From sequence record OR887633: 64,000 bases of DNA; one strand, given 5' to 3'. Below are positions 6,873 to 16,119 of this stretch, in pieces (within the stretch, counting starts at the first letter, position 1; every line of letters begins with the position of its first letter). This stretch comes from Shigella phage vb_GEC_SH_GT. The position numbers were made by a program, and so were the translations under genes. A model generated the notes under the pieces. The model saw nothing but the letters and a program-made list of their open reading frames with translations, had not been told where the DNA came from and ran no database searches.

Positions 6873-7051
6873 TTAGAAATAGACTTTTCACCGTTAGAAT
6901 AATAAACTTCGAGTTTAGCACGATTATTTTTAATTTGAATAACCTTTGCTGTCATCAAAGTTCCATACCCATAATAAACTGCAACCTCATCACCCACATA
7001 TACCGCGCTTCCGCGGTAGTCATGGATATAATCAGTTCCTTCGAGCATCAT
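6836..7051 (-). CDS. Hypothetical small protein
   Basis: 71 aa ORF immediately upstream of nrdC in transcription order. Confidence 0.45.
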   Translation of the reverse strand: MMLEGTDYIHDYRGSAVYVGDEVAVYYGYGTLMTAKVIQIKNNRAKLEVYYSNGEKSISKWKYGDCMVKLG

Positions 7052-7311
7052 TTAAAGTATTCCCGCAATTGGTCAAATCCACCAATATGACTTCCATCAG
7101 GAGCAAATACTTGTGGCATCGTCAGTCCAATTTGAGTATCACGACCTAGTTTCGTCAGAAGCTCAGCGATTTTCTCATCATCAAAAACACCTTTTTCCGG
7201 CATAATGTTGATAAATTCAAACGGCTGTTTCTTTACAGTCAAAAGACGTTTTGCATTATCGCAATACACACATTTATGGATGCTGCTATCATAACCATAT
7301 ACTTTAAACAT
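7048..7311 (-). CDS. nrdC: Thioredoxin/glutaredoxin NrdC
   Basis: 87 aa; CVYC active site; matches recalled T4 NrdC. Confidence 0.9.
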   Translation of the reverse strand: MFKVYGYDSSIHKCVYCDNAKRLLTVKKQPFEFINIMPEKGVFDDEKIAELLTKLGRDTQIGLTMPQVFAPDGSHIGGFDQLREYFK

Positions 7312-7312
7312 A

Positions 7313-7555
7313 TTATTCCTTAATTCCTAGTACTTGTTTAAAAGTCTCGTCGTAATCAAGACTTTGACCTGTTTGTTCTTTATGTTTGTATATAATATCA
7401 CTTACTTCTGATAGCATATTTTTATATGAACGAGTTAAAGCAGATTTAAGCACGCTGTATCTATCAGGAAATTTACCATGTTCATTATAATAAGCTATTG
7501 CTAATTCACGGACTGCCTTTTCAGCAGTCTCCATATATTCTTTACGCTTTGTCAT
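7313..7555 (-). CDS. Hypothetical protein (nrdC.1 position)
   Basis: 80 aa ORF. Confidence 0.5.
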
Positions 7556-7838
7556 TTTCTTCTCGGTTAAATCGGTGTTTGCAATGACGGCATTTATAAC
7601 GAAGATTACTAGTCTGCCAATGGACTAATTGAACCTGTTCAGTACCGCATTCAGGACAATTAGGAACGTTTTTAGAAGCCCTTTCGCGACGTTCAACCAT
7701 AGCCATAATGGCATCCCAAGCCGGAGGTTTAAAATCTAAATCGTCAGTAACTAGCAGTCCTTTATCAAACCCAGCGCATGGAGTCCATTCAGGAAAATCT
7801 GAAGCTTCAGCAATATCTTCTAATAAACGCTTTTTCAT
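7542..7838 (-). CDS. Zinc-ribbon protein
   Basis: 98 aa; CPECG...CRHCKHRF four-Cys ribbon. Confidence 0.55.
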
Positions 7839-8761
7839 TTTAGTACCTCAATAGCATTACGTAAACCATTTGCTTTGGCGGTTAAAGTCTTAATAACTTT
7901 AGTATGCTCTTCAATCTGTTTTTCAACTTCAATCAAACGGGCACTGAGATATTCGCGTTCTTCTTTCATAGTATCATTCCCATGATTGTGCTTTGGTGTA
8001 GGTTTAAATTTACTAGGGTCCTTTAACTTAATAACAACTTTAGTTTCAAACAGTGAAAGACCATAATTCGTATTATCATCAAAGGATTCAACTACGTCCA
8101 TTTTAGACAATAACGTACGAAGATTATAAGTCAAAGAACGAATCGTTTTATTATGTTTATTAGCTTCACATGGTTTCATATATGGAAGATTTTTATATAT
8201 TTCATGTGGAGCACAAACAATAATTGACAATTCAAATGGTCCATTCTGTGATGATGGAATGAATTTAGCCGTAACCCAATCTTTTACATTTACATTAATA
8301 GTACGGTCATCGCCATGACAAAACAGTCTACGAGAATGCTTAAAAAGCATATTCACATTATTATTGAATTCATGTGAAAACTCACTAGCAAATTTTTCTT
8401 TACTATTTTTAGAAAACCATTCTTCTAAATAAGTTCTTTTCACGTCATTAATAATATTAAATGTAACAACACTAGCATTTGATACATTAGTCTCAATGTA
8501 GTTTGGATACATAAATTTTTTAACATTATTGACAGCTATCACAGAAGATAGTAATCGGGAACGTTTGAACCACTCTAGCAAAGAACCAAGAGAATGTGAA
8601 TACGCATTTTGTGTATCTTTACAAATATGGTTTTCCCATCCAATATAGTCTAAAAAATCACGAAGAATATTATTGATTACTGCTCTATGTCCTATCTGAT
8701 AATTACGATGTTTAGTAATAAGACTGTCAAAATAATCAATATAATGTTTACGAGTTTTCAT
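7835..8761 (-). CDS. Unknown protein, member 1 of a tandem array
   Basis: 308 aa; begins MKTR; Pro/Lys linker then C-terminal helix [31 protein letters not shown]. Confidence 0.6.
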   Translation of the reverse strand: MKTRKHYIDYFDSLITKHRNYQIGHRAVINNILRDFLDYIGWENHICKDTQNAYSHSLGSLLEWFKRSRLLSSVIAVNNVKKFMYPNYIETNVSNASVVTFNIINDVKRTYLEEWFSKNSKEKFASEFSHEFNNNVNMLFKHSRRLFCHGDDRTINVNVKDWVTAKFIPSSQNGPFELSIIVCAPHEIYKNLPYMKPCEANKHNKTIRSLTYNLRTLLSKMDVVESFDDNTNYGLSLFETKVVIKLKDPSKFKPTPKHNHGNDTMKEEREYLSARLIEVEKQIEEHTKVIKTLTAKANGLRNAIEVLK

Positions 8762-8813
8762 GTTCTTCTCACTTGGTTAATGATTTATACTCCGAGCCAT
8801 CCTTGGCTTTAAA

Positions 8814-9815
8814 TTACTTAATTAGCTGTAAAGCTTGTTCAAGACGATCCAGACGATTAACAGATTCTTCCCAAATCCTTTTAGCCTTCTCATATTCTTT
8901 CTGCGCTTTATTAGAAATTTCTAGAACTTCTTTATAAGCTTTTTCTAGTGCAATAACTTCTGGACGAATTTCTATCGGTTCAGGCGAATCGTCAAGACAT
9001 TCCATTAGTTCTTCAAGGGTAGTTTCTTCTTTAGGAGTATTCACAATTTCATCACATTTTTGTTGGTAAATTTCTTTATCAGTCGGTGAGTACGTACGTT
9101 TCACTTCACGGAGGCTAATTATAATTTTATATCCTTCCCAACCACACATATTTTTGAAAGGATATGTATGAATACTTTTTACGGTTTCCATACAGCCCAA
9201 AGCCGCCTCTAATTGATAAGTTATAGTGCTAGCAATTGAGAAAAATTTATTAATATTCTTTTGGTTAGCGTTTGGTGTAAAAAATCCATAATTCACAAAA
9301 ATAGCTACTTTATTTTTATCAAGCTCATATTCTTTTACGATAATCATATCAGAAGCCAAAGGATGAATTTGACGATAATTGCCATAACATAATTTAGAAG
9401 CTGATTTTAGAATTTGTCCTTTGAAAAGTCTGAAATTACTAATCCAACGACGAGTAAAAATATTCTCAGGGTCTTCTTTATTATTAAGATGATAAGAATT
9501 AACATCACCGAACCAATTATATCCTACTACATCTTTAGTTCGTTTAATTTCTTTCCCAAATTTACCAAGAATATCTCTGTTGACTAAGTATGAAAGAAGA
9601 CGAGACCCTTTAAAGGTTTTCTTAATGTCATCTTTATCTGTACGACTAGAAATTTCACGAACTTCGTGAATAAATCTGCTGGAAGAAACAATGCTTACAT
9701 CAATATTATTGAGCCATTGATTGATAATAGAAAGAACACTATTCTGACTAGACTTAGGTTTAACTTTATCATCAATAACACTGTTGAATGATTTGATATA
9801 TTCGTTACGAGTCAT
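8814..9815 (-). CDS. Unknown protein, member 2 of a tandem array
   Basis: Start taken at MTRNEY (GAGGAG RBS); C-terminal helical tail ...RIWEESVNRLDRLEQALQLIK. Confidence 0.6.
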   Translation of the reverse strand: MTRNEYIKSFNSVIDDKVKPKSSQNSVLSIINQWLNNIDVSIVSSSRFIHEVREISSRTDKDDIKKTFKGSRLLSYLVNRDILGKFGKEIKRTKDVVGYNWFGDVNSYHLNNKEDPENIFTRRWISNFRLFKGQILKSASKLCYGNYRQIHPLASDMIIVKEYELDKNKVAIFVNYGFFTPNANQKNINKFFSIASTITYQLEAALGCMETVKSIHTYPFKNMCGWEGYKIIISLREVKRTYSPTDKEIYQQKCDEIVNTPKEETTLEELMECLDDSPEPIEIRPEVIALEKAYKEVLEISNKAQKEYEKAKRIWEESVNRLDRLEQALQLIK

Positions 9816-9843
9816 ATTAATCTCCTCAGTAGAAAGTAAGAAC

Positions 9844-9874
9844 ATTATACCACATCCTTGTGGTAAAGTAAACT
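9844..9874 (-). promoter_or_regulatory. Early promoter-like element upstream of array member 2
   Basis: attataccac ... gtaaac with the same geometry as the other early promoter modules. Confidence 0.35.
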
Positions 9875-10901
9875 AGTTCAGTGCATTTAGTGCATTGTTC
9901 AGTTTAGAACGTTGCTTCGTGAGATTTTTGACTTTTTCTTGAGCTTTTTCTAGCATCTTTTCAGCTTCTAGCACTTCATTAGTTGCTTTAACGAGTTCAT
10001 CATCTACTGCCTTGATAGACTTCTCAATCGCATCGGCATGCCATTTTTCAACAGGTTTAAGACTCGGATTTTCAACAGGAAGAAAATTCACTTTATTGAA
10101 TTTCCATGCATCCTTATTACCTGAACTATACATCCAAAATTTAGGATCGTTTGATGAGTAATTGGATAAATTTAAATTTAAGTTATCTTGCACTTCTTGC
10201 TTTTTCTCTTGTGTAACTTCGTCCTTTCTCAAAAAATCGTATTTAAATGAAACGATCATATCAAGTTCATATGTTGTTGTGTCTAATTTAAATCGTTCAA
10301 AACGAGGTAAAATCTTAGACTGAACAGCGGCAACAACATCCATATACTTAAATGCTTCTGTCAACTGCGATTTAAGGCATTCGCAAATTGAAAGAGAATT
10401 TTTTGTATTAGGTTTAAAGCTAATTCGTGCAGTTCTATTATTTTCTTTTAATGGTCTTACTTCCATCTGAAGAGTATAACCATCAAATTTCAGATTCTTT
10501 AAGTTAATATCAGAACCTTTTAATCGACTCGCAGTTGATAAAATTTGCTTTAATTGTCTACGGAACAGAGCAATAAATCTCCATTCAATACGATAATGAT
10601 TTGGATTGAAGAATCCAGATGATAAATCGACCTTACTTTGACCAACGCCTTGAACAAATAGAGGATTTTTATAATCAATAGTTTTACAGAAATCGGTGAG
10701 CTGCTCACGGGCCGTCATTTGTGTAATATACCCTGCTTTACTAAAATTACGCACCCATTCACTGCTATTCGTATACTTAAAGTGATGAATAACACGATTA
10801 ACTTTATCAGGGTCTAAATTATTTTCACACAAAAATGTCATAACATCACGAGTATAGCTGGCATTACGAACCATATCTTCAATTTGAGAACGAGTTTTCA
10901 T
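9873..10901 (-). CDS. Unknown protein, member 3 of a tandem array
   Basis: 342 aa; begins MKTR; C-terminal coiled-coil-like tail ...KAQEKVKNLTKQRSKLNNALNALN. Confidence 0.6.
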   Translation of the reverse strand: MKTRSQIEDMVRNASYTRDVMTFLCENNLDPDKVNRVIHHFKYTNSSEWVRNFSKAGYITQMTAREQLTDFCKTIDYKNPLFVQGVGQSKVDLSSGFFNPNHYRIEWRFIALFRRQLKQILSTASRLKGSDINLKNLKFDGYTLQMEVRPLKENNRTARISFKPNTKNSLSICECLKSQLTEAFKYMDVVAAVQSKILPRFERFKLDTTTYELDMIVSFKYDFLRKDEVTQEKKQEVQDNLNLNLSNYSSNDPKFWMYSSGNKDAWKFNKVNFLPVENPSLKPVEKWHADAIEKSIKAVDDELVKATNEVLEAEKMLEKAQEKVKNLTKQRSKLNNALNALN

Positions 10902-10909
10902 GGTATTCC

Positions 10910-11800
10910 TTAAGATTTAAGTAAATCAACGATTTTAATTAACTTTTCACGCTCAGATTTAGCTTTACTACTCAATCCAGATAGTCTGAAAATTTCATCG
11001 TCATATTGTTGAATAGAAATATTCAGCTCTTCAATTTGCTTATTAAAATAATCAATTTGTTCAGAATGTTTTTCGTTACTACGAACTGGTACAGGTTTTG
11101 TAGGCAATTTAGTTGAACTGGATTCATCCGGGCGATAAATTAAAATACAACTTGAACCAATAGGGCATTTTGCACCAGATGAATATTCTAATGTTCCAGC
11201 TTCTTTTAAAACTTCAAAAGCCAAACAGAGATGATGCCCCATATTAACATAATCTGTAGAGTGAGCTCTGATGTAATAATCATCTCCGCGAATACTGAAT
11301 TTAAAGCATTTAAGGTCTTCTGTATTATTGGTCTTAAAAATCATTTGTTTATCTAGACCTTTAGCTAATCGAGCGCCTAATGCTAATAATCGTCGTTGAT
11401 TTTCCCACAAATCCGTTATCATTTGATCGAATGATAATTTTGGCATTAGTCGACCATAAAGGTCATATCCTTTATTATAATTACGAAGAATTTCACTCGC
11501 ATTAATACGAGACAACGCTCCAATTTTATTAAGGGCTTTCATAATGCGATTAGATAAACTCATTCCAGACCCGGTTGTTCGCTGCAAATGTTTTTCTAAT
11601 CCAAATCCAATATCAACTTTAAACTTATCTAAAATTTCTGCATGAACATCTTTGTCGATAACATTCAAATCCAAAGTTGGGTTAAATCTATGAAAAAATT
11701 TATCTGGCTCTCCACGGCGAAGTACAGTCCATTCATTCATCATTTTTTTATTAACTAATGATTTAATTACTGCATTGACATTATTAATTACTACTGACAT
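10910..11800 (-). CDS. Unknown protein, member 4 of a tandem array
   Basis: Start at MSVVINN (GAGGAA RBS); Pro-rich linker then helical tail ...SKAKSEREKLIKIVDLLKS. Confidence 0.6.
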   Translation of the reverse strand: MSVVINNVNAVIKSLVNKKMMNEWTVLRRGEPDKFFHRFNPTLDLNVIDKDVHAEILDKFKVDIGFGLEKHLQRTTGSGMSLSNRIMKALNKIGALSRINASEILRNYNKGYDLYGRLMPKLSFDQMITDLWENQRRLLALGARLAKGLDKQMIFKTNNTEDLKCFKFSIRGDDYYIRAHSTDYVNMGHHLCLAFEVLKEAGTLEYSSGAKCPIGSSCILIYRPDESSSTKLPTKPVPVRSNEKHSEQIDYFNKQIEELNISIQQYDDEIFRLSGLSSKAKSEREKLIKIVDLLKS

Positions 11801-11807
11801 ATTTTCC

Positions 11808-12215
11808 TCACTCAATTTCAATTTTACTAAATACACAGAATATGATTGAACAGACTACATAAGCGCCACACACGGATTGAACTAATACCATCCCAAAGAA
11901 CCAAACAATATTATCAAACAGTGTCTGTTTTACGTCGAAAGGACGTAAACTTACAGTAATATTATCACCCTTTTCTATTGAAGAATACATCTCTGGGGAA
12001 ATATATTCACTAAATCTATAACCGTCTTTGAGTTCATATACGGCAATAAACGATAAACTAGACCCTTTTCCTTGTGTTCCTGTAATGGTATTAACTACAG
12101 TAACATCATAATCTTTATAATGCATATAATCATTAATTGCGTAATAACCGTATGCAACTACTACACATAAACAACATATCAATAAATTCAATCTTTTAAT
12201 TATCAACTGTTTCAT
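11808..12215 (-). CDS. Two-TM membrane protein
   Basis: 135 aa; hydrophobic N- and C-terminal segments. Confidence 0.55.
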   Translation of the reverse strand: MKQLIIKRLNLLICCLCVVVAYGYYAINDYMHYKDYDVTVVNTITGTQGKGSSLSFIAVYELKDGYRFSEYISPEMYSSIEKGDNITVSLRPFDVKQTLFDNIVWFFGMVLVQSVCGAYVVCSIIFCVFSKIEIE

Positions 12216-12270
12216 AATAATCTCAATTAAAAGGGCTTAGAACCATTATACCATCCTTGGTATAAAGCGG

Positions 12271-12798
12271 TTATGCGAGTACCGTCTTTAACCGTTCTTC
12301 AAACTTCCGAAGAGTATTTTGGCGTTCAGCTCTTTGCTTTTTGTAAGTTTCAATACGCTCTGAAATGAGAGTGTATCGTTCATTTACTGATTCTTTCATA
12401 AAATCAGGAATTTCACGAGAAGCTTTAATCTCATCAAATTTATCAATAACAGCTTGCTCTTCAGCAATTAAGTTATCATACATTAAAATATCTTTCTTGA
12501 TGAACTCAATATCTTCTTGAGTTACACGAGACATTTTAGATGCTTTATCCTTTTTGTACTGTTCGTTAGTATCACGAGACCAATGTAATGTACGATTTTT
12601 ATTCGTATTCTTGTAAATTTCTACAATACCAATCTCATCAATAATAACGATCCAATTCCAACGGGATTTGTAAATTTGTCCTCCATCAACAGTGATTTCA
12701 CCTCCGATTGAGATGTCATTAAAGAACTTGCTTTGTGCTTCAGATTTAAATTTACCATCGTTGTAATTTACCAAGTTAAAAATATCTTTAGCGTTCAT
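12271..12798 (-). CDS. Hypothetical protein
   Basis: 175 aa, helical charged C-terminal half. Confidence 0.55.
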   Translation of the reverse strand: MNAKDIFNLVNYNDGKFKSEAQSKFFNDISIGGEITVDGGQIYKSRWNWIVIIDEIGIVEIYKNTNKNRTLHWSRDTNEQYKKDKASKMSRVTQEDIEFIKKDILMYDNLIAEEQAVIDKFDEIKASREIPDFMKESVNERYTLISERIETYKKQRAERQNTLRKFEERLKTVLA

Positions 12799-12823
12799 TT
12801 TCTGTTCCTCCGTAGTTGATAGT

Positions 12824-12856
12824 TGTATAGTACCACAGAGGAACAGTCTTGTAAAC
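12824..12856 (-). promoter_or_regulatory. T4-type early promoter (minus strand)
   Basis: tgtatagtacc ... tgtaaacc module directly upstream of the gene starting at 12798. Confidence 0.5.
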
Positions 12857-12858
12857 CA

Positions 12859-13161
12859 CTAAAAGAAACTTCTTTCACAATTTTTTCCACTGAACCATGC
12901 GCTCACTGCTTTCTTAGTCTCAGGAGCAGTGTTATCCATAAACCATTCAAAGGCAGCCTTTTTATGATTCTGGAGGGCTTCTCGGGCTTTAATCTGCTCA
13001 CGGTCTATTAACACTAACATATGAGCCTTTCTTGTCACCATGGGCTTCTTATGATTTTTTGAATATTCCCAATCATTTGTCCATCGCATCGTTGTTGCGA
13101 ATTGAAGTACAGCTTCTTTAATTTTAGTTTCGTAAATTTCACGAGCCTTTGAGTATAACAT
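12859..13161 (-). CDS. Hypothetical protein
   Basis: ORF 12859-13173; start at MLYSK has a GGAGGT RBS. Confidence 0.5.
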   Translation of the reverse strand: MLYSKAREIYETKIKEAVLQFATTMRWTNDWEYSKNHKKPMVTRKAHMLVLIDREQIKAREALQNHKKAAFEWFMDNTAPETKKAVSAWFSGKNCERSFF

Positions 13162-13262: not shown

Positions 13263-14231
13263 TTATTTCAGAAGAGTAACCTCAGCGATTTCTTCCCAAC
13301 CGTTTTTGTCGGTCATAATAAAGTCAGCAAGATAAAGTGCAGTACGCAGTGAAACATTACGTAAACGGTTAACATTGACTTTCATCCATGATAATGCTTT
13401 GTAAGTTTCTTCATCAGAAAGACCGCGTTTTTGCATCATGTCGGTTGAAAGAATAACATCTTCAACCCTGACCATAATTTCTTCATTAGTGTGAACACCC
13501 AAATCTAAATAAACTGAGCGGGACACTAATGCTTGTAAATGTGGAGCAAGTTTAGTACCACGGTCTAATTCGCGGTCAATGTCAACGTTTGTGATAAAAA
13601 CAATCGTTCCTTTAAATTCAAACTCACGCTCAATGCCTTTTTCTTCTAAGTAAGAAGATGCAGTGCTCCAGCAGACTTTACGGGTCTCTCCAGTGTCCAG
13701 AGCAGCTTTCAGAAGATTAAGAATGTCCATATCAGAGAAAACATCCACATCATCAATCAAAAGGACAGAATTCTCTTCACGATTATTCCAAAGCTGTTCA
13801 TAAAGACCGATACCGGAGATTTTACCGTTAATGCTTTTATATTCAATGTATCCATTGTCATTTGCTTTATTTAAAGCTTTATCTAAAGAATACGTTTTAC
13901 CAATACCCGCCGCACCAGAGATAATTAATGAACGAATGTTTCCGTTAATAATACCATTCGTCATCATTCCCATAACATTAAATCTTTTATTAATGCGGGT
14001 TTTCATATCTTCATATGATTCTTTAACTTCTTCAACTTTTACACCATCATATGAAATGTCTGATTTGTAAACCCAAACACCACGACGTTTACCGTCAATT
14101 TCAACAAAAACTTTACCATCTCCTTGTGCATCTACCGGAGCATTATCCGGGAACCATTCGCCTAAGAGCTCAAAAGTTCCAGAGATTTCTTTACCGAAGT
14201 AGATACCCTTATTGATAGTTACAGTTTTCAT
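13263..14231 (-). CDS. P-loop NTPase (AAA-like ATPase)
   Basis: Walker A GAAGIGKT and Walker B LLIDDVD in the translation; start at MKTVTINK with GGAG RBS. Confidence 0.7.
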   Translation of the reverse strand: MKTVTINKGIYFGKEISGTFELLGEWFPDNAPVDAQGDGKVFVEIDGKRRGVWVYKSDISYDGVKVEEVKESYEDMKTRINKRFNVMGMMTNGIINGNIRSLIISGAAGIGKTYSLDKALNKANDNGYIEYKSINGKISGIGLYEQLWNNREENSVLLIDDVDVFSDMDILNLLKAALDTGETRKVCWSTASSYLEEKGIEREFEFKGTIVFITNVDIDRELDRGTKLAPHLQALVSRSVYLDLGVHTNEEIMVRVEDVILSTDMMQKRGLSDEETYKALSWMKVNVNRLRNVSLRTALYLADFIMTDKNGWEEIAEVTLLK

Positions 14232-14264
14232 TTTATTCTCCAAATCCGTATCAGTTGATAGATG

Positions 14265-14296: not shown

Positions 14297-14325
14297 GTTT
14301 TGTGAAAAATTTTTGAAATAAAAAA

Positions 14326-14343
14326 GGGAGCCCGAAGGCTCCC
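14326..14343 (-). terminator. Stable hairpin with UUCG tetraloop (minus-strand RNA)
   Basis: gggagcc-cgaa-ggctccc, 7-bp stem, 3' of the nucleotidyltransferase ORF. Confidence 0.55.
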
Positions 14344-14345
14344 TA

Positions 14346-15356
14346 TCATTTATAATAACTTCGGTGGTTTTCAAGATAGACCTTCTCAAGGAAGTCATCC
14401 CAGAAACTCATGTCTACTTTTTGCTGCATACCGTTCTTAGAAGCTTCAGTAGATGCTGCTTCTACTTGATCGACCACATCTTCCAAAAACTCTTGAACCG
14501 TTTTAAATGGATGTTTACCCAACTTCACGTCGAGAATAAATGGAGCATCTTTGAGTGGATAAACCAAGTCACCAGTTTTGTAAATTTCCAATAGTTGAAG
14601 TCCACCACGACAAGCATGGCTCAAAGCTTTCCAGTCAATACCTTCGTTGGCTTCGGCCTTACGAGCACGTTCACCGTATTCAGCATCTAATTTGTTCAGT
14701 GACTGCTTAAGTTCAATAAGAGAAAGCGTTGTCTGATATTTACGACCCAACACAGTGTAGAACGTTTGTGGGCCTGTTTTCTCATGATTATGGAACACCC
14801 ATTCACAGAATTCGTTTTCTGGAAGACGATGCTTAATATCTTCAACTTTAGTACGACGCTGCTTAATAGAACCATCTTCTTGGTAATCAATCCATTGCTC
14901 AGGGATTTGATTAACTACTTTCAATACATCACGTAATGCAGCCAAACGAGAACCCTTGACGCCATATTTAGAAGCTTGCTTACGGACATATCCTAAATAG
15001 GATTTCATGTTAGTCGTATAAAAACGAGAACGGTTGTCTTGAATAAACTTCCACACATCAGGCAAATCAGATTTAACCACTAGTTCAGGTGGAGTGTGAA
15101 GCATATCCAATGCTACGGTTTCACCATCTGCTGCTAATTTAAAGAAATATTTAAGACTGTATAGTTCATGGTCAATATCATCTTTAGTGTTTTTAGATGA
15201 TGTGTTGTTAGTGTTTTTGCTCATATGCTCTTTGACATTTCCGATAAGAATATCGCGAGCAGGAGGAACAAAGATTTCTTTAAAATCTACATCAGATTCT
15301 GGGGTAGAAGTTCCATAAAGATGACTACCAAAATAAGACTTAACTACAGTTTTCAT
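14346..15356 (-). CDS. Pol-beta-superfamily nucleotidyltransferase-like protein
   Basis: N-terminal GS-x10-DVD signature (FGSHLYGTSTPESDVDF); start uncertain (15356 or 15392). Confidence 0.65.
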   Translation of the reverse strand: MKTVVKSYFGSHLYGTSTPESDVDFKEIFVPPARDILIGNVKEHMSKNTNNTSSKNTKDDIDHELYSLKYFFKLAADGETVALDMLHTPPELVVKSDLPDVWKFIQDNRSRFYTTNMKSYLGYVRKQASKYGVKGSRLAALRDVLKVVNQIPEQWIDYQEDGSIKQRRTKVEDIKHRLPENEFCEWVFHNHEKTGPQTFYTVLGRKYQTTLSLIELKQSLNKLDAEYGERARKAEANEGIDWKALSHACRGGLQLLEIYKTGDLVYPLKDAPFILDVKLGKHPFKTVQEFLEDVVDQVEAASTEASKNGMQQKVDMSFWDDFLEKVYLENHRSYYK

Positions 15357-16119
15357 TATTAGACCTTTCATAATCTTCATTAAATTGTACAATCAATCGA
15401 TGATAATTAGATTTTGGATATCCTAATTTACTTATATAAGTTCCGAATGACCCACGTTTAGGTCTATTTAATTTAATCCATAACTTATAAAGTAAGTCAT
15501 AGTCTTGCCAATGTTTACCAGTTCTTTGTCTAATTTTAGATGAATTTGATTGTTTCTTTTTAGTTTCAAAATTATTCAAAGATTTTTTGACTGCAGCAGA
15601 GTGTTTTTCTTTAACTCCCGGCCGTTTAAAAGCAGCTTTCACCCCTTTAGATATTTTTTCTTTAACTTCCGGTTTGTTTTGTGCTTCTAACTGGGATTCT
15701 GAAATTTTAGCCCTTATTTCAGGAAGACTTAATGTTATCGAACGTTTTTCTCTGTATTCATTAGACTTCCACATTTCTTTCATTGTATTAGAATGTATTT
15801 TTGAAAATTTTTCTCTAACTAACTGATATCCTCTTGAAGTTAATTTGAGATTTCTTCCTAAAGAATCTTCTCCAAAATTATAAAATGACCACCATGCATA
15901 AATTAATCCAGGCGAATTATAATGAATTTTAGCTAAAAGCCAATGGGCTATAAAATGCTCTCTAGCTGTTAATAAAACTAGATTATCAGAATCATCATTA
16001 CCACCAATACAAGATGGAATAATATGATGCTTTTCCGTATAAAAATTTAATTTAGATTTATCTAATTTTCTGAGTTTTCCTTTCTTAATTAAATTATTAT
16101 ATACTTTAGTATAATTCAT
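15340..16119 (-). CDS. HNH endonuclease (mobD-like, putative homing endonuclease)
   Basis: HHIIPSCIGGNDDSDNLVLLTAREHFIAHW HNH motif; basic C-terminal half. Confidence 0.75.
   Translation of the reverse strand: MNYTKVYNNLIKKGKLRKLDKSKLNFYTEKHHIIPSCIGGNDDSDNLVLLTAREHFIAHWLLAKIHYNSPGLIYAWWSFYNFGEDSLGRNLKLTSRGYQLVREKFSKIHSNTMKEMWKSNEYREKRSITLSLPEIRAKISESQLEAQNKPEVKEKISKGVKAAFKRPGVKEKHSAAVKKSLNNFETKKKQSNSSKIRQRTGKHWQDYDLLYKLWIKLNRPKRGSFGTYISKLGYPKSNYHRLIVQFNEDYERSNNENCS

Follow-up and report, generated by a model that had tools for sequence, protein, structure and literature searches.

Phage T4 is the reference lytic phage, and most of its nrdC.x genes are without an assigned role. A function in the evasion of host immunity was described for one of them, nrdC.5. 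An evolved T4 deletion clone lost plating on E. coli ECOR17, and deletion of dsr1 in ECOR17 restored it (PMC9391042). Plasmid-borne dsr1 shielded MG1655 from the deletion clone (PMC9391042), and plasmid-borne T4 nrdC.5 restores plating of this clone on MG1655 carrying the ECOR17 dsr1 (Srikant et al. 2022, PMC9391042). The SIR2-domain protein Dsr1 has a sensor in common with Avs7, and it is this sensor that major capsid proteins of phages activate (PMC13581612). Here we analyze the genes nrdC.3, nrdC.4, nrdC.5, and nrdC.6 of Shigella phage vb_GEC_SH_GT (sequence record OR887633), a Tequatrovirus (T4-like phage), in a stretch of 64,000 nucleotides of one strand, referred to below as the window. 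With a probability of roughly 0.6, the four genes are diverged tandem paralogs of a family found only in T4-like phages and encode modular, early, dispensable, non-enzymatic counter-defence proteins.

The T4 open reading frames (ORFs), their Pfam and PHROG families, and the role of nrdC.5 are already known, and the advance reported here is incremental, since the genes, the families, and one function are on record. What is new is the evidence for one superfamily of four members with a bridging, ancestor-like single-copy gene, the distinction between a conserved coiled-coil tail and a variable body, the copy-number series among genera, and the natural hybrids.

The four genes and their families

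A preliminary description of the window had proposed four minus-strand ORFs, and their coordinates proved exact: nrdC.3 at 7835-8761 (308 amino acids, aa), nrdC.4 at 8814-9815 (333 aa), nrdC.5 at 9873-10901 (342 aa), and nrdC.6 at 10910-11800 (296 aa). Their position, guessed in that description by counting genes along T4, is borne out by the annotation of phages PP01 and T4, from which the gene names are taken. Over bases 7000-13000, identity to phages EPIMRB01, AUBRB02, and PP01 is 98%, and 465 phage records contain at least 80% of this segment. As noted earlier, two of the proteins begin with MKTR (MKTRKHY in nrdC.3 and MKTRSQI in nrdC.5); the N-terminus of nrdC.4, MTRNEY, is a variant of this start motif.

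The nrdC.5 protein matches Pfam DUF7235 (PF23882) over profile positions 1-307 of 307 (E = 9.5e-128, 426.4 bits at a cut-off of 30) and corresponds to UniProt Y05A, which is NrdC.5 of T4. The nrdC.3 and nrdC.4 proteins are assigned through their homologs to one Pfam family, PF26897 (Phage_T4_Y04OP), and belong to one PHROG family, phrog_1435, which they match at full length (E = 5.6e-100 and 2.4e-163, respectively). The nrdC.6 protein, the most diverged of the four, is likewise assigned to PF26899 (Phage_T4_Y05B) and matches phrog_2257 at full length (E = 5.7e-152). The assignments to PF26897 and PF26899 rest on hits of homologs, neither model having appeared in the local Pfam scan: PF26897 is precomputed on 35 of 35 nrdC.3 and 63 of 63 nrdC.4 homologs (up to 98-99% identical), and PF26899 is found on all 105 nrdC.6 homologs (up to 97% identical).

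The start of nrdC.4 was correctly placed in the preliminary description at 9815 and not at the upstream ATG at 9845. The spacer between nrdC.5 and nrdC.4 contains a match to a T4 early-type promoter (9872-9844, minus strand; GTTTAC-N17-TATAAT with an extended -10 TG), which agrees with the consensus in 10 of 12 positions plus the extended -10 and is a consensus match alone. Since the longer ORF would open inside this promoter match, and since a ribosome-binding site, GAGGAG, is found 7 nucleotides ahead of the ATG at 9815, the shorter gene is accepted.

In PP01, which among annotated phages is the closest relative, nrdC.5 (locus L001, 5874-6719) was matched as two separate segments and its annotated product is some 60 aa shorter, and the annotation of nrdC.6 in the same phage (locus L001, 6909-7742) is likewise shorter; frameshifts or sequencing errors could account for both.

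Homology of the four proteins

The proposal that these are tandem diversified paralogs was examined by an all-versus-all comparison of profiles, which, together with a bridging protein family, links all four proteins; we regard their homology as very probable. The closest paralog of nrdC.3 is nrdC.4. The bodies of these proteins, that is, the parts preceding the linker and the C-terminal tail described below, are aligned by hhalign at 98.4% (P = 5e-15, 205 columns), and the hidden Markov models (HMMs) of the two proteins match each other reciprocally (3.5e-9 and 3.7e-13 among the 162 ORFs of the window). By these comparisons nrdC.3 and nrdC.4 are clearly paralogs.

The divergence of nrdC.5 and nrdC.6 is too great for direct detection of their kinship, and what we take as the decisive link for their membership is a bridging family, here called family K. 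It consists of the single-copy genes located just upstream of nrdC.2 in Kanagawavirus (CIP9, IME523, and PEi26), Mosugukvirus (PM2), and Marfavirus (P545). Family K is collinear with nrdC.5 (hhalign 97.3%, P = 2e-11, 244 columns), with nrdC.6 (94.6%, P = 6.4e-8, 209 columns), and with nrdC.4 (87.4%, P = 3.7e-6, 177 columns). With the tails removed, it still matches nrdC.4 at 90.4% and nrdC.6 at 75.7%.

Structural models lead in the same direction. AlphaFold2 models were made for two of the four proteins, nrdC.4 and nrdC.6, and they have six neighbours in common in BFVD, each with a probability of 1.0, from phages IME523, PM2, fHyAci03, Acj61, Acj9, and fHe-Yen9-01. The lengths of the entries from IME523 and PM2 equal those of the family K proteins, a match by phage name and length only.

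Several in-register motifs recur among the proteins, namely the M(K)TR start, (D/E)(I/Q)LxxF/YxK, and a helix with xLxxAxRLxxG. Pairwise BLASTP similarities are weak and collinear (30 bits for nrdC.3-nrdC.4 and 25 bits for nrdC.3-nrdC.5), and no BLASTP match to the other three proteins was found for nrdC.6. Iterative HMM searching with full-length sequences, begun with the CIP9 protein, brings in the families of nrdC.6, nrdC.3, and nrdC.4, joined in the final round by two proteins of the nrdC.5 family; this merging is driven by the tails and was therefore not used as evidence of homology of the bodies. The Acinetobacter phage family taken alone is linked only weakly, at 15% with the nrdC.4 body and at 23% with the nrdC.3 tail, and a related-locus search with the Acinetobacter phage protein yielded only one near-identical contig.

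An early non-collinear 50-bit match of the nrdC.3 profile to nrdC.5 was rejected as an artefact, because the profile had included the metagenomic protein P0034, a natural chimera of nrdC.5 and nrdC.3 described below; the profiles were rebuilt without it.

Body, linker, and coiled-coil tail

The four proteins had been described as having a common size and layout, with an N-terminal body, a linker, and a tail, and this is confirmed by the two models, by a heptad scan, and by the profile links. The nrdC.4 model has a predicted local distance difference test (pLDDT) value of 85.8 and a predicted template modelling (pTM) score of 0.69; the respective values for nrdC.6 are 79.7 and 0.66. The nrdC.4 model comprises a helical N-terminal region (residues 1-84), an alpha/beta domain (88-235), a linker, and a C-terminal helix (285-332). 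In both models, the alpha/beta domain opens with three helices, after which come a beta-hairpin, a long helix, and another beta-hairpin. The agreement in secondary-structure order between the two models has a score of 115 versus 72 +/- 11 for block shuffles, none of 500 shuffles reaching the observed value. The common layout of the four proteins is more than chance, since the secondary-structure order beats the shuffles and the profile comparisons link all four.

The bodies are about 220-250 aa long, including the helical region and the alpha/beta domain. The linkers contain proline and are segments of low confidence in the two models. The earlier characterization of the linkers as Pro/Thr/Lys-rich is right for nrdC.3, nrdC.5, and nrdC.6, which are rich in Lys and Thr, and fails for nrdC.4, whose linker is acidic (TPKEETTLEELMECLDDSPEPIEIRPE).

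An amphipathic or coiled-coil helix of 30-45 aa had been predicted at each C-terminus; a heptad helix is present in all four, and it is slightly longer than predicted. The last 46-52 residues of each protein form a single continuous heptad register, in which 80-93% of the a and d positions are hydrophobic, a level reached by 0-1 of 2000 shuffled sequences. The predicted coiled-coil tail of nrdC.3 (7838-7975, minus strand) covers residues 263-308 with an a/d occupancy of 0.85 (0 of 2000 shuffles), that of nrdC.4 (8817-8963, minus) residues 285-333 with the end RLEQALQLIK (0.86, 1 of 2000), that of nrdC.5 (9876-10031, minus) residues 291-342 with the end KLNNALNALN (0.93, 0 of 2000), and that of nrdC.6 (10913-11068, minus) residues 245-296 with the end KLIKIVDLLKS (0.80, 1 of 2000). 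All four finish in a similar L-x-x-A-h-x-h-h-K motif. The tail HMM of nrdC.5 matches the nrdC.3 tail in register (E = 8e-5), and a tail-only hhalign comparison of nrdC.5 and nrdC.6 gives 77.5% (P = 1.9e-5). In the models, the tail of nrdC.4 is one long helix and that of nrdC.6 is a helix-turn-helix (243-272 and 278-295). Conservation among distant orthologs is higher in the tail than in the body in each of the four families (0.77 versus 0.62, 0.62 versus 0.45, 0.34 versus 0.25, and 0.65 versus 0.42).

The neighbouring nrdC.8 was considered as a fifth member because of a C-terminal helix that looks alike by eye, and was rejected, as it has no support from the tail HMMs (best E = 0.35).

Distribution and copy number

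An exhaustive search of 1.84 billion representative proteins with nrdC.5 found 12 clusters, and word-indexed searches with nrdC.3, nrdC.4, and nrdC.6 found 35, 63, and 105 clusters, respectively. All named matches in the searches with the four proteins are phage proteins or hypothetical proteins labelled as bacterial, and the family is, as judged from these searches, confined to T4-like phages.

A comparison of array size across T-even relatives, suggested in the preliminary description, revealed copy numbers from zero or one up to four. One copy is located beside nrdC or nrdC.2 in Lazarus-, Acajnona-, Kanagawa-, Mosuguk-, Marfa-, and Jiaodavirus, upstream of these genes in the first five genera; two dispersed copies are present in Tegunavirus. 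Three copies are found in Mosigvirus (of the nrdC.6, nrdC.5, and nrdC.3 types) and in Dhaka- and Gaprivervirus (of the nrdC.6, nrdC.5, and nrdC.4 types), and four in Tequatrovirus. In an Aeromonas phage of the genus Tulanevirus, no family member was found within 9 kb of nrdC.10.

The nrdC.2 gene (7542-7838 in the window), which in other genera lies directly downstream of the single-copy family member, encodes a small protein with a zinc ribbon and two CxxC pairs. No other gene of the region comes close to it in divergence from T4 (71% aa identity, 98 versus 104 aa, and a ratio of nonsynonymous to synonymous substitution rates, dN/dS, of 0.41).

Deletions, hybrids, and allelic diversity

Some Tequatrovirus isolates have collapsed the array through deletions between copies. 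Phage Pinarejo (locus L013, 4430-4660) retains only stubs of nrdC.6, the first approximately 20 and the last 47 codons. In phage ACG-C40 (locus L015, 4302-4713), only nrdC.6 is intact, accompanied by a 69-aa stub of nrdC.5 and an out-of-frame tail of the nrdC.3 type. In a 167-kb metagenomic T4-like phage (locus L011, 4570-5900; also L012), nrdC.5 is split and nrdC.4 is lost. Salmonella phage Manna (PP987310; locus L014, 3715-4752) encodes a 345-aa in-frame hybrid, nrdC.6(1-270)-nrdC.4(255-333), with the junction at a shared QQ(Y/K)(D/C)DEI motif; the deletion removes the remaining part of nrdC.6, the whole of nrdC.5, and the nrdC.4 body. Finally, the above-mentioned metagenomic chimera P0034 (299 aa), found in four contigs, combines nrdC.5(146-274) with nrdC.3(134-308) and stands in place of nrdC.4. 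The series from one to four copies and the collapsed hybrids provide material for the study of how phages expand and prune immune-evasion genes.

Each of the four genes is present in 553-741 records. The alleles of nrdC.3 are bimodal, with 137 records at 90% identity or above, 299 at 60-80%, and 215 below 60%, and the DNA flanking this gene is mostly 90-95% identical among T4-like phages, which together suggests that nrdC.3 alleles may have been replaced through recombination. The nrdC.4 alleles are diverse, mostly at 80-95%, and the diversity of nrdC.5 and nrdC.6 is lower. The neighbouring nrdC.10 has the least allelic diversity, with 419 records at 99% or above, which is far exceeded by the variation of nrdC.3 and nrdC.4 among isolates. 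Between the window and T4, dN/dS is 0.31, 0.20, 0.09, and 0.06 for nrdC.3 to nrdC.6, respectively, corresponding to purifying selection.

Proposed role in counter-defence

The four genes are of the early type, non-essential, limited to phages, and modular, and their copy number varies. The assignment of the array to the class of counter-defence families, made initially from its organization, is upheld by the published activity of T4 nrdC.5 against Dsr1 (PMC9391042), demonstrated for one of the four genes. The nrdC.5 protein of the window is 97.1% identical to that of T4T, and the gene is syntenic, with a dN/dS value of 0.09; it is the ortholog of the anti-Dsr1 gene of T4. Given the anti-Dsr1 role of nrdC.5 and the paralogy of the four genes, nrdC.3, nrdC.4, and nrdC.6 are candidate immune-evasion genes, and we nominate them as testable counter-defence candidates. 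In the literature searched for work on nrdC.3-nrdC.6, also under other names, or on inhibition of Dsr1, we found nothing beyond the 2022 eLife paper.

The following scenario may be proposed. The ancestral state was probably one gene, directly upstream of nrdC.2 or nrdC, which would have expanded to three or four copies in Tevenvirinae infecting E. coli. Each product is a modular protein, with a fast-diverging body, a flexible Pro-rich linker, and a better-conserved C-terminal heptad-repeat helix of about 50 aa, presumably made early in infection and dispensable in laboratory hosts. As shown by T4 genetics, nrdC.5 neutralizes the sirtuin NADase (NAD, nicotinamide adenine dinucleotide) Dsr1 of the host, and nrdC.3, nrdC.4, and nrdC.6 probably neutralize other host immune proteins or other variants of Dsr1. 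The variable body may serve as the specificity element, binding an immune sensor or effector stoichiometrically before the late phage proteins appear, and the conserved coiled-coil tail may oligomerize the protein with itself or with its paralogs, which would provide avidity towards oligomeric defence complexes. The division into a putative specificity body and a conserved tail can guide truncation and chimera experiments.

In many GenBank records, the genes nrdC.1-nrdC.11 are labelled as thioredoxin or glutaredoxin. We found no match to such a family at E <= 1 and no CxxC in any of the four sequences. The label looks like a name carried over from the neighbouring nrdC, and this widespread mis-annotation is corrected here for nrdC.3-nrdC.6.

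Alternative explanations

Several points weigh against the reading of the array as diverged counter-defence paralogs. Experimental support covers nrdC.5 alone, in the form of genetic rescue, and no binding or biochemistry of NrdC.5 was found in the literature searched; that the proteins oligomerize via the tail and bind defence proteins directly is what we infer. No gene-wide signature of positive selection is seen between the window and T4 at this distance. As to kinship, direct body-only hhalign comparisons give 54% for nrdC.4-nrdC.5 and 12% for both nrdC.4-nrdC.6 and nrdC.5-nrdC.6, all of them collinear, and body-only iterative HMM searches did not merge the families at p < 1e-8. The template modelling scores (TM-scores) of the BFVD neighbours are modest, 0.3-0.5, because the tails are flexible.

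The alternative that survives best, although we consider it rather improbable, is that nrdC.5 is the only counter-defence gene of the array, and that the remaining members, nrdC.3, nrdC.4, and nrdC.6, are ancient duplicates that serve unrelated purposes (host takeover, for example) or have little present function. It agrees with the viability of Pinarejo, Manna, ACG-C40, and the 167-kb metagenomic phage, which lack one to three of the genes, and with the fact that no publication assigns a phenotype to the other three. However, all four genes are intact, they are under purifying selection over the whole dN/dS range of 0.06-0.31, each is retained in hundreds of genomes, and the tail is conserved across the four families. 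The losses in individual isolates, moreover, follow the pattern of host-specific accessory genes, and nrdC.5 itself is among the lost genes.

Two further explanations may be considered. According to one, which appears doubtful, the bodies attach to freshly synthesized structural proteins of the phage, for example the major capsid protein sensed by Dsr1, and hide these triggers from the pattern-recognition receptors of the host, in place of blocking the sensor; each paralog would then cover a different core protein. According to the other, which we likewise hold to be unlikely, the proteins are modular decoys directed at bacterial receptors that recognize the shape of phage proteins, of the Dsr1/Avs7 type or other Avs sensors. 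Each fast-evolving body would then have a sensor of its own, which it would occupy or whose ligand it would mimic, and the weak similarity of the modelled nrdC.4 alpha/beta domain to the tail-terminator fold hints that a component of the virion may be imitated. Through the shared tail, the paralogs would form homo- or hetero-oligomers, and in-frame hybrids of body and tail, such as the nrdC.6-nrdC.4 fusion of Manna, would be functional re-assortments. If this is true, T-even phages would possess an expandable anti-receptor system that has not been described before.

Unrelated origins of the bodies are very unlikely. In this case, the layout of nrdC.5 and nrdC.6 would be convergent, or a mobile coiled-coil tail module would have been attached to unrelated bodies, in line with the merging of the iterative HMM families only when the tails are included and with the 12% in direct matches of the nrdC.6 body to nrdC.4 and nrdC.5. 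Nevertheless, family K matches nrdC.4 and nrdC.6 collinearly by bodies alone, and the secondary-structure order agrees between the nrdC.4 and nrdC.6 models. In addition, the nrdC.5 body HMM recruits a 335-aa protein of Acinetobacter phage fHyAci03 (E = 2e-4 for a fixed database size of 100,000), and both models have among their structural neighbours a 335-aa entry from fHyAci03, which is matched to this protein by phage and length only.

Finally, it is most improbable that the four proteins work as enzymes, for example on NAD-related metabolites, and not as binders: the preliminary description had recognized no catalytic motif, and Pfam, NCBIfam, PADLOC, and PDB sequence searches gave no enzyme match for any of the four. 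In particular, the PDB searches with single sequences and profiles returned no match, PADLOC matched no defence-system model, its one signal being a 12-bit coiled-coil similarity between BrxC and the nrdC.4 tail, and the NCBIfam output was limited to coiled-coil noise below the threshold (SEC10/PgrA).

Neighbouring genes

The array lies downstream of nrdC.11 and nrdC.10, whose conservation is far above that of nrdC.3-nrdC.6. The nrdC.10 protein (13263-14243 in the window) has weak matches to clamp-loader PHROG families and occurs in 1311 phage records, including the jumbo phages 121Q, PA5oct, and Atu_ph07. Homologs of nrdC.11 (14346-15356) carry the Pfam domain PF10127 RlaP and are named nucleotidyltransferase in several phage records. 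The gap between nrdC.11 and nrdC.10 contains a strong terminator-like hairpin on the minus strand (14325-14344, GGGAGCC-TTCG-GGCTCCC followed by TTTTT; eight pairs, six of them G-C). Upstream of nrdC.11, an ORF of 259 aa (15340-16119) occupies the position of the T4 homing endonuclease MobD and overlaps the extended nrdC.11 ORF.

Comparison with known systems

The nearest counterpart of the array is T4 NrdC.5 (PMC9391042). The third gene of the array is its ortholog, in the same position and with a full-length Pfam match, and nrdC.3, nrdC.4, and nrdC.6 appear as its remote paralogs with the same domain layout. In the paper on T4 NrdC.5 we found genetic rescue only, and no mechanism, structure, or link to the neighbouring genes (PMC9391042).

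DSAD1 of phage SPbeta, which inhibits DSR2, resembles NrdC.5 functionally: it reportedly provides escape from a SIR2-domain, NAD-depleting defence, the sensor of which recognizes a virion protein. Sequence searches and structural neighbours revealed no similarity in sequence or fold between DSAD1 and nrdC.3-nrdC.6. The similarity to tail terminator and completion proteins (lambda gpU, T5 p142, and SPP1 gp17-like) has scores below the level of homology and no counterpart in sequence; unlike the tail terminators, the nrdC proteins have an additional N-terminal helical region and a coiled-coil tail, and are products of early genes, not known as virion parts.

The organization of the array resembles that of the dmd-tifA-adfA locus of T4, the 'anti-TA island' (TA, toxin-antitoxin), in that early, non-essential, host-range-determining genes are clustered in a variable T-even region (PMC9391042), and loci of this type are likewise lost or amplified via recombination (PMC9391042). 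However, whereas dmd, tifA, and adfA encode unrelated small proteins, nrdC.3-nrdC.6 very probably represent the expansion of one modular protein of 300-340 aa.

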